Below, in pieces: positions 14,030-19,269 of a stretch of 64,000 nt of DNA. The notes beneath the pieces are model-generated. The model searched no databases, was not told where the DNA came from, and saw only the letters and a program-made list of their open reading frames with translations. The position numbers were made by a program, and so were the translations under genes. Numbering within the stretch: the first letter of the stretch is position 1; each line of letters starts with the position of its first letter. The DNA comes from a virus (Duplodnaviria > Heunggongvirae > Uroviricota > Caudoviricetes), in IMG/VR virus record IMGVR_UViG_3300017987_005500. One strand, given 5' to 3'.

Positions 14030-14518
14030 TTATGCATATAATTTATTCACAAACTCTGGAGCAACTTTCGCATAATGATAAGTTGTGTCTTTCAATTTAA
14101 TAATTTTAGAGTTAGCATATTCTCTATAGTCTATATGAATCCACCCATTAGGAAAATACTCAGCAATTGTATTTCTATACTCAAGTTTCCCAACAATAAA
14201 ATTAAAAATTTCAATTAATGTAATATTGGATTCGACTGGTTCAATATCTGCAGCTTCTCCCCTGCAATGATTACTTGTACTACTTCCACCAATTTTTACA
14301 TTTAACTCTGGACAACGATAACCTGATTCAATCCTGAGTCTTCCAAACTGATTTCTTATAGGTTGTAAGACATTAACTGCTAACTTTTCAATACTTAACC
14401 AAACATTTTCATCAGTAGGAATATTATCAATTCCATGTCTTATAGCAGTCATTGATTTTACAAATTCGCCATACCTAAAGTTGGGTGCTCCAGGAATCTT
14501 ATCATTCAAATTTCTCAT
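14030..14518 (-). CDS. Peptidase M15A (Zn D-Ala-D-Ala peptidase / endolysin-like)
   Basis: SGYRC.ELN..IGG...SNH..GEAADI...WIHID. Confidence 0.9.
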   Translation of the reverse strand: MRNLNDKIPGAPNFRYGEFVKSMTAIRHGIDNIPTDENVWLSIEKLAVNVLQPIRNQFGRLRIESGYRCPELNVKIGGSSTSNHCRGEAADIEPVESNITLIEIFNFIVGKLEYRNTIAEYFPNGWIHIDYREYANSKIIKLKDTTYHYAKVAPEFVNKLYA

Positions 14519-15386: not shown

Positions 15387-15644
15387 TTATGGGGCAGCTC
15401 CAGATTGTCCAACACATCTTGGAAACCATTCAGCGCCATAATCCACAGTAACAGCACCATCACAAAATGCTGTATTTTCTGAAGTTTTATCATCAACATA
15501 TTCAATATCATATCTGGTACCATTATGTGTAAGACAAGGAACCTGATTATTATCTAAATAATCTGTATTATCTCTCATTTCAGTTAATACTTCTTTTAAA
15601 ACATATAACCCTTTTCCTTTTGGTGCTGTCCAAGTAAATGACAT
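15387..15644 (-). CDS. Putative radical SAM substrate peptide 2
   Basis: MSFTW start, EMRDNTDYLDNN..C motif, Cys at 37/61/77 in a 4-residue register; same operon as two rSAM/SPASM genes. Confidence 0.55.
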   Translation of the reverse strand: MSFTWTAPKGKGLYVLKEVLTEMRDNTDYLDNNQVPCLTHNGTRYDIEYVDDKTSENTAFCDGAVTVDYGAEWFPRCVGQSGAAP

Positions 15645-15655
15645 ATTTATACTCC

Positions 15656-16123
15656 TTATACATTCGATGGGTTATAATAATGTAACCAATTATATTGGAC
15701 AGATGCATGCCAATCTGTATTAGCAGATGAATTATCAGTTGAACATCCTGGATCATATGCTGCATTATCACTATTTAAAATTGTTGTGTAATTAGGTGTC
15801 CAATAAATACTGCAATATCCATAACATCCATGAAAACCCCCATTATACCCAGCATTATCAACTGATTCAGCAGTTCCACAATAAGGGACATATTGATTTA
15901 TATAATTTGCAGTACATACATTATTATTATCTGTATCATCAAGAGCGTTTCTTACTTCATCAGTAGGATTATAAGGAGTTAAATATGATCCTTTTGTAAC
16001 AGGTACTGATGACCAAGACCAAGAACTAAGACCAATATCTGAACGCACCGTATTTATGTTATCTTTTAATTCCTCATAATGACTTGCTTTTACTTGTTCA
16101 GCATCAGACCATACGAATGACAT
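15656..16123 (-). CDS. Putative radical SAM substrate peptide 1
   Basis: MSFVW start, EVRNALDDTDNNNVC motif, C/Y/N/W/H-rich C-terminal half. Confidence 0.55.
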   Translation of the reverse strand: MSFVWSDAEQVKASHYEELKDNINTVRSDIGLSSWSWSSVPVTKGSYLTPYNPTDEVRNALDDTDNNNVCTANYINQYVPYCGTAESVDNAGYNGGFHGCYGYCSIYWTPNYTTILNSDNAAYDPGCSTDNSSANTDWHASVQYNWLHYYNPSNV

Positions 16124-16126
16124 AAA

Positions 16127-16645
16127 TTACTCCTTATCTTTAACATCCTTATCAGAACAACTAAAAATTGTATCAATATAATGTTTTGATAATTCAAATG
16201 ATGGAGGGTTAAATGATTGATAAGTTCTTAATCTTTCTGATAGACTTTTAAATAAATGAATACAATCTCTAAATGACAAAAATCCATCTAGGAAATTTGT
16301 CAAAAATGATACTCTAATAGAAATAGATTCTAACTTCAATGTATTTTGATTATAATTATATAAAAACATTGACATACTTTTAAGAATTTTAATATCATCT
16401 TCAGACGTTTGTCTCTCTAAAGTATTGAACATTACCAAGTCAGTCATTTTAGTAAGATCAAGTTCTGTAATTACCTTATCATCATCTTCCTTTATCTTCT
16501 CATCTTTATATAATATCTCAGCACAATAAAACATCTTTTCCATAATCTCTTTTACAATAGAAGCAGACCCTTCAAAGATAGTATTTAATCTTGGTCCATT
16601 AATAAATTCAGTAATTTCAGTTTTTATTTCTTCAAATGATTGCAT
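16127..16645 (-). CDS. Helical accessory protein of the rSAM cluster
   Basis: 172-aa ORF between the rSAM genes and the peptide genes. Confidence 0.5.
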   Translation of the reverse strand: MQSFEEIKTEITEFINGPRLNTIFEGSASIVKEIMEKMFYCAEILYKDEKIKEDDDKVITELDLTKMTDLVMFNTLERQTSEDDIKILKSMSMFLYNYNQNTLKLESISIRVSFLTNFLDGFLSFRDCIHLFKSLSERLRTYQSFNPPSFELSKHYIDTIFSCSDKDVKDKE

Positions 16646-16660
16646 AATTTCTCCATTTAT

Positions 16661-17965
16661 TTAATTACAAAAAAGTTTATCAATTTCCACCAAACTTTCA
16701 CGTTTGCTATTATTTATTTTATCCAATAATGAATAAAACACTCCAACTTTCTTTAACCCTTTAACTAATGATATTATCTTAGTATGTTCTAGCATACAAA
16801 CAACATCATTAGGATAAAACAAATCATATGAATTTTCAAATTGAGATCCTAAACATCCACTTCCGCATAAAGTATTAAATAATGTGCAATGATCACATTT
16901 AGGAAAATTCTTTGTTAAGCATGACTCTATTGAAATCATTAACTCAGGTTTCTTTACATCATATACTTCAAATTCAGGAAGTTTAAGTTTCCCTATTTCA
17001 AACCATTTATATGCCAATCTATGACATGGGACAATTGTCATATCTCCAAGTCTTATCATTAATGAAGATTGAATTGAACAACCTATACCTCTTACCGTAG
17101 TTGTAAATAATGTAGATAATATATTCAATCCTTTTTTAGATAAAATATAGTCAACCATTGTATCATGATCTGAATTGCATATTCTTTTATATGCAACCTC
17201 AACCAAATACTCCATAAAACTTCCAAATTCTTTTATCTCTTCCTTATTCCAATCTGAATTTCTTACCTCTAATAAATATAAAGATTTAATTGGAATATCA
17301 TATTTCTTATACATATCAATATACCAATCAATATTATCTTTCCATTTATAAATATTAGATGAATGAATCATTGGATGGAAACCAGAACGTTTATTTTCTT
17401 TTACAAATTGGAATGCTCTTTCATAATATGCTTCATCTCTTATGTCTTTAATTTTCCCTTTATAGGGTCTTGATATCTCACAATGAAATCCTTCAACTGA
17501 AAGACTTATCATTATCTCTTTATCTTTAACAGCTTCTTGAATTTCATTTGTTTTCTTTTCATCAGTCAAGAATGTCCCATTGCTAGGAATTGTAACAGCT
17601 CCATACGTTTGAGAATATTCAGAGAATATATCAATTAACTCTAATCCTATTTTTCTATTTAATATCTCTCCTGAAAATAATAAGATTTGAGTCCTAACCT
17701 TATTGTCCATTAACCATTTATTAAATTCTCTTGCATTCTTTAATATATTCTCTTTCTTAAGACTTTCTTCATTATAATATTGATCGCCAAACTTATTATA
17801 ATAACAATACTTACATGCTAAATTGCATTTCTTATCAATTATTAATTCAATTGAATTATAACTTTCTAATATATCCGGATCCCTTTTTCCTAAATAAGCA
17901 CTTAAATGCCTCTTCCTAATTATGTCAGTTACAAGTTTGTTATTTTCTTCTTGGTAAGATTTCAT
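16661..17965 (-). CDS. Radical SAM/SPASM peptide maturase
   Basis: CNLACKYC; SGE; SPASM GC...PCHRL...CDHC....LCGSGC......C. Confidence 0.9.
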   Translation of the reverse strand: MKSYQEENNKLVTDIIRKRHLSAYLGKRDPDILESYNSIELIIDKKCNLACKYCYYNKFGDQYYNEESLKKENILKNAREFNKWLMDNKVRTQILLFSGEILNRKIGLELIDIFSEYSQTYGAVTIPSNGTFLTDEKKTNEIQEAVKDKEIMISLSVEGFHCEISRPYKGKIKDIRDEAYYERAFQFVKENKRSGFHPMIHSSNIYKWKDNIDWYIDMYKKYDIPIKSLYLLEVRNSDWNKEEIKEFGSFMEYLVEVAYKRICNSDHDTMVDYILSKKGLNILSTLFTTTVRGIGCSIQSSLMIRLGDMTIVPCHRLAYKWFEIGKLKLPEFEVYDVKKPELMISIESCLTKNFPKCDHCTLFNTLCGSGCLGSQFENSYDLFYPNDVVCMLEHTKIISLVKGLKKVGVFYSLLDKINNSKRESLVEIDKLFCN

Positions 17966-19269
17966 TATTCGCTTTTCCTCGCATTAGATACAATTTTATT
18001 TATTAATTCAAATGCTCCATTACCAAATAATCTTATTACACTTAATGGAGTTACATGCCAAGAGGATGTTACAAAGAAATTTTCTATAGGACAATATGAA
18101 CATGCATTTAAAAATATCGCCAATACTTCAGCAGCTCTTTTATCTTTGTATATAGGACTTACTTGATTAGAACTTGCACATTCCATAATCGTTGCTGTAG
18201 CAGTACAAACTCTATGAGTATAATTATCATGCAATGATCTCATGTGTAATTTCATAAATTTATGATCAAGTTTATAATATTTCTTATATACTTCAACAAT
18301 CCCACTCTTTAAATAATCAACATCGTCGTTGGTATCATTATCAAGAGTTGCAATTGAGTTAACATGATCATCATATACAAAGTATAAAGGTCTGTGACAT
18401 AAATGCATTCCATTCATTGTATCAATTGAAACATTAGAGTCACCAGCAGAGCATGTAAATTCTCTCTGCTTATTTGTATAATCTCTCATCCTAACTATTG
18501 AGGATGCCCATCTATCTGGGTATACTAAAACAGGAACTATATTTTTTAGTTCCTTAAATCTTCCTTCGTGTAATAATCTTGCTGTATTAGTTAAGTAATT
18601 ACTGAATATTTTTCCATCGTTAGATGTATAAGCTCCTGGACATATTATGGATTCTCCTATTTGCATAGGTTTGAATTTATCTCCAATAATATCCTTAATC
18701 ATTCCAGCAAAGTCATTATAATGAGAGAAGTATTCAAATGCTTTATCGTCATTGGTTAATGTCTTAAAGTTATCAATACTTCCAGTTGATTTAAAATGAT
18801 AATTAAATACACATTTATGTTTGACCAATGTCTTAACAATTTTAATAGTATTCTTTATTAATATTTCATCCTTTAACCCTCTGTTTTCTTCATTAAATAA
18901 TCCATCATCTGATATTTGCAAAGACAGTCCCAGTTTGTTTTCTGAGAGTGTCTTTGAAAATTTATCAAAATGTTTTGGAAATGTCATATTTGATGAAATT
19001 GAAACTTCCGTTAAATTTGGAAACAATTTTTTATACTTATCAAAGTTGTCAGAAATAATGTCTAAATGTAAAGTTGGTTCCCCGCCCCATAATGAGAGGA
19101 TGGTTACTTCATCTTTATTAATTACGTCAGGGATTTTAGGATCTTCTAACCACTTCATTAGATCCTTATCCATATTCTTTATCGCTTCAGTCTTCTTAAT
19201 GTAACAATATTTACATTCAAGTGTGCACTTAGCTCCACCGAATATTGATAATGCTTTGTATTCATTCAT
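17965..19269 (-). CDS. Radical SAM enzyme with partial SPASM/Twitch domain
   Basis: CTLECKYC, WGGEPT, CSAG...LCHR, CSYC; stop overlaps the next start. Confidence 0.85.
   Translation of the reverse strand: MNEYKALSIFGGAKCTLECKYCYIKKTEAIKNMDKDLMKWLEDPKIPDVINKDEVTILSLWGGEPTLHLDIISDNFDKYKKLFPNLTEVSISSNMTFPKHFDKFSKTLSENKLGLSLQISDDGLFNEENRGLKDEILIKNTIKIVKTLVKHKCVFNYHFKSTGSIDNFKTLTNDDKAFEYFSHYNDFAGMIKDIIGDKFKPMQIGESIICPGAYTSNDGKIFSNYLTNTARLLHEGRFKELKNIVPVLVYPDRWASSIVRMRDYTNKQREFTCSAGDSNVSIDTMNGMHLCHRPLYFVYDDHVNSIATLDNDTNDDVDYLKSGIVEVYKKYYKLDHKFMKLHMRSLHDNYTHRVCTATATIMECASSNQVSPIYKDKRAAEVLAIFLNACSYCPIENFFVTSSWHVTPLSVIRLFGNGAFELINKIVSNARKSE

Follow-up and report, generated by a model that had tools for sequence, protein, structure and literature searches.

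Two adjacent proteins of 85 and 155 residues (p85, positions 15387-15644, and p155, positions 15656-16123), encoded on the minus strand of IMG/VR virus record IMGVR_UViG_3300017987_005500 (Caudoviricetes), carry a four-residue register that is real, non-random and conserved in their homologues. The stretch analysed, here called the window, is 64,000 nucleotides long, AT-rich (33% GC) and phage-like, and within it the two proteins close a tight operon whose gene order is rSAM-A, rSAM-B, helper, p155 and p85, rSAM-A and rSAM-B being two radical SAM enzymes, the latter with a SPASM domain. Based on our comparisons of sequences and gene neighbourhoods we propose, as a reading to which we assign an even chance, that the four-residue unit (tetrad) is the unit modified by the two radical SAM enzymes and that p85 and p155 would be the dedicated substrates of a phage-specific cassette.

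Both proteins are built of an N-terminal leader followed by a core, and the register resides in the core. In p85 a single leader unit (residues 1-36, 15537..15644 on the minus strand, reading MSFTW...EMRDNTDYLDNN) is followed by a core (residues 37-85, 15390..15536, minus strand) that opens with the invariant junction residue Cys37, continues through ten in-phase tetrads (LTHN GTRY DIEY VDDK TSEN TAFC DGAV TVDY GAEW FPRC) and ends in a conserved tail. In p155 two tandem leader units (residues 1-69, 15917..16123, minus strand) stop directly before Cys70, and the core (residues 70-155, 15659..15916, minus strand) comprises about 20 tetrads arranged in three in-register blocks, each headed by a Cys. 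An earlier sequence-only reading had listed residues recurring at every fourth position of both proteins, and every residue and number in those lists proved correct; the Cys residues lie at phases 1, 1 and 1 modulo 4 in p85 and at 2, 2, 0, 0 and 3 in p155. Compared with shuffled sequences, the periodicity claimed in that reading held in p85 and failed globally in p155, where it held at short range. For the residue set C/Y/W/N/H, the period-4 power of p85 was matched by none of 2000 shuffles (p=0.002, corrected over 11 periods), with eight pairs at each of lags 4, 8 and 12 against about 2.6 expected, whereas the same set exhibited no global phase in p155 (p=0.34) and a local excess at lag 4 (20 pairs versus 14.7 expected, p=0.047; for C/Y/W/F/H, 13 versus 6.2, p=0.002). 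As this residue set had been picked post hoc, the shuffle test of p85 is biased, and Cys alone did not reach significance in this protein (p ~0.05). Taken by themselves, the data of the window are suggestive for p85 and weak for p155.

The unbiased test was a four-state cyclic hidden Markov model (HMM), which was seeded with the pattern spotted by eye, afterwards trained on 51 cores of other loci with the window sequences excluded, and evaluated against 5000 shuffles. The model recognised the core of p85 (residues 37-85) with z=3.25 and p=0.0018 and that of p155 (residues 70-155) with z=6.5 and p<0.0002, while the two leaders, used as controls, were non-significant (z=-1.75 and +1.9). When the four states are called a to d, the Viterbi path assigns all eight Cys of the two window cores, three in p85 and five in p155, to state d, so that Cys occupies 3 of the 13 d positions of p85 and is found five times over the approximately 20 tetrads of p155. 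The path also reproduced the three Cys-headed blocks that had been discerned by eye in p155: it breaks at G99-C100, where the register shifts by +2 residues (15824..15829), and again at P125-G126-C127, a three-residue unit (15743..15751), both on the minus strand and both verified via translation, and it slips briefly twice more near the C-terminus, at about residues 142-150. Conservation follows the same phase, since six of the ten invariant core columns in the p85 subfamily (7 sequences) are d positions (hypergeometric p=0.014). The tail P-R-C-x-G-Q-x-G-A-A-P (p85 residues 74-85, window 15390-15425) is kept throughout this subfamily, even in relatives of ~50% identity or less (P0129, P0131), and is not present in other subfamilies. 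Tandem Repeats Finder detected no tandem repeat in the DNA that could produce the four-residue register.

A word-based search found six close relatives of p85 (64-93% identity) and two of p155, and a profile search of 1.84 billion representatives added 16 more distant relatives of p85, which share the leader consensus M-[AS]-F-x-W ... E-I-R-D-N-x-D-x-x-D-N-x-x-C and have hypervariable cores. A scan of viral contigs with a pattern derived from the p85 alignment gave no match, and the enzyme alignment served instead: rSAM-B has at least 679 relatives, and an alignment of 24 of them retrieved 79 viral loci. The family described below is the product of this one search, anchored on rSAM-B. A leader HMM detected about 55 leader-bearing open reading frames (ORFs) in 32 of the 79 loci, nearly always as a tandem pair beside the enzyme pair. 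In loci that the leader model missed, a strongly tetrad-periodic ORF lies just upstream of rSAM-A (z=15, 8.9 and 6.5), indicating that the tetrad model locates substrates even where the leader has diverged past recognition.

The four-residue register is common to these approximately 55 divergent cores. An unbiased autocorrelation of 54 cores, scored with BLOSUM62 against shuffles, gave mean z values of +2.5, +3.8, +2.6 and +4.4 at lags 4, 8, 12 and 16 and negative values at lags 2, 6, 10 and 14 (mean z -1.7 to -2.3), and in the 22 cores of at least 110 residues every lag that is a multiple of 4 was positive up to 48 (mean z 2.7-4.7). Many cores of p85 relatives display the tetrapeptides openly, as in C-STHY-ASYL-STHY-STNQ-AGHY-SSYC-GSNY. 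When cores are aligned in pairs, 49% of the gaps have a length divisible by 4 (25% expected), an excess that we do not count as independent evidence, because the alignment of periodic sequences favours in-phase gaps and the pairs are non-independent.

The trained model describes the tetrad in terms of residue classes. Position a is small (S 0.30, then A, T and G), position b is T 0.26, G 0.21 and S 0.20, position c is Y 0.21, V 0.16, H 0.15 and D 0.15, with Glu as well, and position d is D 0.29, N 0.20 and Y 0.16, then K, H, L and R, with C at 0.037. At least 97% of the Ser, Thr, Gly and Pro of the family reside in states a and b, and state d holds 89% of the Cys, 87% of the Arg, 71% of the Lys, 54% of the Asn, 49% of the Trp, 41% of the Tyr and 24% of the His. 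Aromatic residues and His are commoner at c than at d, about half of the Tyr being at c. Most cores contain 0-1% Cys, and those of the window, at 4-6%, are among the richest. The cores can be typed by composition as His-rich, Tyr/Asp-rich, Val/Asp-rich or Cys/Asn-rich, and the two cores of one locus are alike in this respect (r=0.47 within loci versus -0.03 between loci, permutation p<0.0002, 23 two-core loci including that of the window). They are so although the two kinds of protein are ancient paralogues.

In contrast to the cores, which are hypervariable, the leaders contain invariant residues in the three alignments examined (A1, A4 and A5). In p85, 23 of 36 leader columns are invariant among 7 homologues and the leader HMM matches with E=5e-27. 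The same single-leader model matches p155 twice, the units spanning roughly residues 2-28 and 37-75, and in 21 double-leader proteins W5, W37, D62 and C70 (p155 numbering) are invariant. The p85 leader is the counterpart of the second unit of the double leader, and in both substrates the leader runs up to a Cys that is nearly invariant and precedes x-[T/S]-His. The relation between p85 and p155 became visible through the leader HMMs and was not revealed by a profile-profile comparison of the two families, whose sole match covered 14 core residues with a probability of 6%. Searches of p85 and p155 against Pfam, PHROG and NCBIfam gave nothing significant, the sole Pfam match being DUF6447 to p85 (E=0.046).

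Predicted structures draw the same boundary between leader and core, although models of repeat proteins built from shallow alignments are weak evidence. AlphaFold2 (AF2), given 21 family sequences, predicted the p155 leader with a predicted local distance difference test (pLDDT) score of 74-87 over most of residues 10-70, dropping to 59 around residues 41-50, and with helices at residues 13-29 and 53-67, whereas the core scored about 30. For a single-leader homologue with clean repeats the corresponding values were 81-89 for the leader and 42-58 for the core. The p155 model had no match in BFVD at E<=0.001, and its best hit among 48,161 chains searched with VIA-align (Z 4.9) consisted of generic helical hairpins and was uninformative.

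The genes surrounding the two proteins recur with them. In 33 loci we find a cassette of five genes encoding rSAM-A, rSAM-B, a helper of about 170 residues, a double-leader protein and a single-leader protein, of which p155 and p85 are, by their leaders, the double- and single-leader members. The linkage is obligatory: rSAM-A stands beside rSAM-B in nearly all related loci, helper homologues are found in 30 of the 33 cassette loci, and the enzymes, the leader proteins and the helper are all that these loci share; the cassette genes stand in varying order, between unrelated flanks. Across 115 kb of this genome the leader HMM detected the leader in p85 and p155 only.

Each enzyme has 434 residues and the CX3CX2C cluster motif of radical SAM proteins, which reads CTLECKYC in rSAM-A (17965..19269, minus strand; motif at residues 15-22) and CNLACKYC in rSAM-B (16661..17965, minus strand). 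The Pfam family Radical_SAM (PF04055) matches both above its cutoff (2.8e-9 for rSAM-A, which also matches Fer4_12 at 4.9e-7, and 3.9e-10 for rSAM-B). rSAM-B carries the complete set of seven SPASM cysteines (C296, C314, C357, C360, C367, C371 and C390), all of which, together with C47, C51 and C54, are invariant in 24 homologues; the SPASM model TIGR04085 aligns to residues 307-388 with 21.3 bits versus a cutoff of 27. The C-terminal Cys cluster of rSAM-A is partial. The nearest NCBIfam profiles are those of the peptide maturases PapB, YhhB, CbpB and the SCIFF maturase, all far under the family cutoffs; PapB is the best match of rSAM-A (4e-10) and scores 67.8 bits (9.3e-19) with rSAM-B against a cutoff of 340. 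The closest solved structure to rSAM-B is that of CteB (5wgg, 1.3e-11). Of the features of radical SAM/SPASM maturase systems, the CX3CX2C motif, a seven-Cys SPASM domain (in rSAM-B) and a neighbouring candidate precursor whose leader is conserved while its core varies are present here.

The helper (16127..16645, minus strand, 172 residues) belongs to no known family and is the third conserved component of the cassette. It had no significant match in Pfam or NCBIfam, one weak match in PHROG (phrog_8862, E=0.006) and no usable match in the protein atlas. As neither enzyme has space for a fused leader-binding domain ahead of its first cluster, the helper may supply leader binding. The ribosome-binding sites of p85 and p155 (window 15645-15655 and 16124-16140) are canonical TAAGGAG sequences, and the three genes upstream have weaker ones, which suggests that the putative substrates are produced in larger amounts than the enzymes.

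Full-length relatives of the enzymes were found on IMG/VR viral contigs and on short contigs of metagenome-assembled genomes (MAGs) labelled Nanohalarchaeota, Saccharibacteria, Paceibacterota and others, while isolate genomes have only the generic radical SAM core in common with the cassette enzymes. One such MAG contig, assigned to 'Candidatus Paceibacterota' (L085), equals the IMG/VR viral contig L027 in length (26,635 bp) and in match coordinates. Because of this coincidence the labels of candidate phyla radiation (CPR) and DPANN lineages are probably binning errors, and we found the cassette, a feature of large uncultured phages, solely on viral contigs and on MAG contigs probably misbinned from phage. 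In a tblastn search of 50,697 GenBank phage records, p85, p155, rSAM-A and rSAM-B gave no match (limits for the enzymes 1e-5 and 1e-3). Our literature searches retrieved no published description of the cassette. A study of pelagimyophages mentions unnamed radical SAM cassettes in a host-recognition cluster (PMC7029224).

Based on these data we propose the following scheme. The substrates would consist of an N-terminal helical recognition domain, single in p85 and tandem in p155, followed by a hypervariable tetrad core for which no fold is predicted with confidence, and the contrast in predicted confidence (pLDDT mostly 74-89 for leaders, 30-58 for cores) supports the substrate role. The leader would dock on the helper and the enzymes, recruiting them to the core, where the enzymes would read the tetrad and place modifications, either crosslinks or other C-H chemistry, at phased sites. 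For the phased nature of the modification we reason by analogy with TvgB, which acts on TVGG repeats, and with HxsB and HxsC, which act on the S-H-R-S-S motif of HxsA. The product, we speculate, could be no small secreted peptide but a covalently stiffened polar rod or adhesin employed on, or together with, the virion. Two fusions are in line with this last point. In P0134, a metagenomic p85 relative of 286 residues, a Hint/intein-like domain beginning at a Cys comes after the leader and the tetrad core (the Pfam match to Hom_end_hint is weak, 5.7e-4 and under the cutoff), an arrangement suggesting that the modified part is released or transferred by autoproteolysis. In the second (L025:2983-4185, identical in L026) the first protein of the cassette lacks a tetrad core, and its leader-like N-terminus is joined to a LamG/concanavalin-like domain (3e-16). 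Together they suggest that the products are functional proteins and not small diffusible peptides.

A stronger version of the proposal, which we consider rather unlikely, is that the enzymes would build a regular ladder of modifications, spaced by a tetrad or an octad, over cores that measure 50-330 residues, in the form of C-C, C-S or C-O crosslinks or of epimerisations. If true, such a ladder would yield a backbone architecture beyond ordinary folding, for example a rod with covalent rungs or a D/L-patterned beta-helix, for use on the virion or the host surface, and it would be the first periodic, protein-scale modification system from viruses of the type known from peptides that are made on the ribosome and modified after translation (RiPPs). 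In 11 of the 33 cassette loci a GT4-type glycosyltransferase (Pfam Glycos_transf_1, 1.8e-8, L007:7269-8204 and ten other loci) directly follows rSAM-B, and for this reason the Ser/Thr-rich a and b positions could also be glycosylated.

Several observations weigh against the view that the tetrad is read by the enzymes. The tetrad is made of residue classes rather than of a fixed motif and in this respect resembles a structural repeat more than it does TVGG, CXXX or HxS. As position c varies among Tyr, Val, His, Asp and Glu, a single reaction on a single residue type is unlikely, and motifs modified independently of one another need no phase coherence across at least 48 residues. The leader of L025 and L026 is joined to a folded LamG domain where a repeat core is absent, and Pfam and NCBIfam scans recognised no leader-binding domain (RRE/PqqD) in the helper. 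The junction Cys is the most conserved residue outside the leader, and the enzymes could act there alone. Finally, one double-leader protein of 390 residues (L024:3707-4876), composed of near-perfect 8/16-residue Asp/Val/Thr repeats with very regular Val/Asp octads, scores above the Pfam cutoffs for DUF2345 (52.8 bits, 5e-14) and Gp5_trimer_C (41.2 bits, 2e-10).

The last of these proteins leads to the main alternative, which we regard as less likely than an enzyme-read tetrad and in which the register is the signature of a fold, namely a fibrous beta structure such as the triple-stranded beta-helix of the gp5C/VgrG type or another polar beta-rod. Positions a/c and b/d would then form the two faces of a strand, with small and large side chains taking turns on each face. 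The proteins would serve as virion fibres or adhesins, and the enzymes would touch only a few sites, chiefly the junction Cys and now and then a Cys at d, to staple the assembly. Besides the L024 protein, the class-based nature of the pattern, the strength of the 8- and 16-residue superperiods among the lags and the leader-LamG fusion within the cassette all fit a fold, as do the lectin-like and discoidin-domain proteins that neighbour the cassette at other loci and the glycosyltransferase that trails it. Yet L024 is the only protein to match the beta-helix models, since the approximately 44 other family members scanned, p85 and p155 included, have no match to DUF2345 or Gp5_trimer_C. The sequence-only reading had itself named a beta-solenoid as an alternative to be sought by structure prediction, and the AF2 monomers show none, with the low core scores given above, although monomers cannot reveal an intertwined oligomer; a prediction of three copies of the single-leader homologue L013:4159-4659 (alignment A5) gave an ipSAE of 0.01, which neither supports nor opposes trimerisation. 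Moreover, plain amphipathic strands do not usually give anticorrelation at lag 2, the signal has a similar strength at every multiple of 4 and is not limited to 8 and 24 or to 16, and a fold leaves unexplained the obligatory partnership with two SPASM-type enzymes and a helper. An enzyme-read tetrad and a fold signature are compatible and not mutually exclusive.

The sequence-only reading had seen in the register a degenerate CXXX-type repeat with Tyr, Trp, Asn and His in place of most Cys, and had suggested that mixed thioether and aromatic crosslinks could be introduced processively at each fourth residue, here position d. Our results render this reading improbable. Its observational half stands, in that the register is real, conserved and adjacent to two radical SAM/SPASM enzymes, and its grouping of residues was sound, as Cys, Tyr, Asn, His and Trp do share position d. 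That d harbours all the Cys of the two window cores, and most of those of the family, along with much Asn, Tyr and Trp speaks for it, and so do the weak match of rSAM-A to the CXXX maturase model TIGR04115 (E=6.8e-6) and the fact that the closest relatives of the enzymes, PapB and CteB, form thioethers. The repeat of Cys itself was not borne out, and neither was its replacement by other residues. The CXXX system (TIGR04114/TIGR04115) resembles the present one in its period of four, its Cys in one phase and its adjacent radical SAM maturases, but it has Cys at every fourth residue across most of the core, whereas in the family studied here Cys accounts for about 4% of the phased position and Asp plus Asn for 49%. 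Since most cassette cores hold hardly any Cys, this residue is not the essential or ancestral one of the register, and His and much of the Tyr are at c and not at d. The match to TIGR04115 amounts to 25.8 bits against a cutoff of 350 and that model is not among the 25 matches listed for rSAM-B, p85 and p155 match no NCBIfam target model at E<=0.01, those of the CXXX system included, and neither enzyme found a counterpart among the GenBank phage records, a set that presumably contains the giant Salmonella phages carrying CXXX cassettes. Mixed crosslinks at every fourth residue would be one possible sub-case of an enzyme-read tetrad.

That the register is a function-free artefact of chance or composition in two Asn/Tyr/Ser-rich, low-complexity ORFs is highly improbable, for although the residue set was chosen post hoc, Cys alone gives a borderline value in p85 and nothing in p155, and the window cores on their own show weak autocorrelation in the unbiased measure (lag-4 z=1.5 and 2.4), the family-trained model is significant on both cores and not on the leaders, the register is shared by divergent cores, and no DNA repeat lies behind it.

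Leader and four-residue rhythm are the sole features that the putative substrates have kept. Should the rhythm mark modification sites, mass spectrometry would have its map in the c and d residues of every tetrad, and enzyme-modified viral proteins would form a large and hypervariable field that is so far unexplored; should it mark a fold, that fold would be a new polar fibrous repeat whose assembly depends on radical chemistry.

Downstream of the cassette, at a distance of about 870 bp, the minus strand of the window encodes a protein of the peptidase M15_3 family (14030-14518, 5e-18) that is probably an endolysin or other cell-wall hydrolase. There is no enrichment of the T4-type late promoter motif TATAAATA, with 18 occurrences versus 13.4 expected.

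Among known systems, HXS offers a close parallel in gene content. HXS (HxsA/B/C/D; Nat Commun 2026) is a bacterial anti-phage system in which two radical SAM enzymes and a small partner, HxsD, mature the repeat protein HxsA, HxsB and HxsC modifying its S-H-R-S-S motif (PMC13128918). In our 33 loci, too, two radical SAM enzymes with a small partner would serve a repeat-bearing protein and not a short peptide. The motif S-H-R-S-S can be read in tetrad classes as b-c-d-a-b, and [T/S]-H-x-[S/A] is present in many of our cores. Unlike the present cassette, which is phage-encoded, HXS is bacterial and directed against phage; its unit is the three-residue HxS in five copies rather than a four-residue unit in 10-80 copies, and HxsA has a peptidoglycan-binding domain, whereas p85 and p155 lack one and have no significant Pfam domain. 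At the level of the enzymes, rSAM-A scores 17 bits with HxsB (TIGR03978) against a cutoff of 370, HxsC is absent from the full list of matches of rSAM-A and from the 25 best of rSAM-B, and the helper does not match HxsD.

The rSAM-SPASM enzyme TvgB modifies the TVGG repeats of TvgA to give a poly-cyclopropylglycine RiPP (PMC9062424). Common to both systems are an rSAM-SPASM enzyme and a precursor, here putative, with a four-residue repeat and a conserved N-terminal region, and T/S-V at tetrad positions b-c, as in TVGG, is frequent in some of our cores. The TvgA/TvgB system has a strict TVGG, short peptides, one enzyme, an oxygenase and transporters, whereas the cassette has a degenerate tetrad, cores of up to 330 residues, two enzymes and a helper, no exporter or protease, and a phage as its host genome.

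PapB/freyrasin and CteB/thermocellin, the nearest enzyme relatives by profile, have in common with the cassette the SPASM architecture and the action on Cys-containing cores in a leader-dependent manner, which is here predicted. In contrast to the ranthipeptide/SCIFF maturases, the present enzymes score far under the cutoffs and have no fused N-terminal leader-binding domain, and most cores of the family are free of Cys; in p85 the residues four positions after each Cys are N41, V65 and S81 rather than the Asp or Glu of the ranthipeptide CX3D/E acceptor motif. The commonest reading of the tetrad, with [Y/H] at c, [S/A/T/G] at a and d open to every residue, may be likened to the aromatic-X-X3 motif of the triceptides, but c is often Val, Asp or Glu. 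The triceptide maturase models score low (YhhB 39.2 bits versus 445, FxsB 23.6 versus 370). With the beta-helices of T4 gp5C and VgrG DUF2345 the family shares the eight-residue superperiod, whereas its composition is rich in Asp, Ser, Tyr and Asn and theirs in Val and Gly, and we know of no obligatory enzyme partners for gp5 or VgrG. To our knowledge, radical SAM/SPASM enzymes that act on repeats are represented by a few bacterial peptide pathways (TVGG, CXXX) and by one bacterial anti-phage protein (HxsA). The same repeat logic would be found here in a viral cassette, with two enzymes, a helper and two co-evolving substrates.

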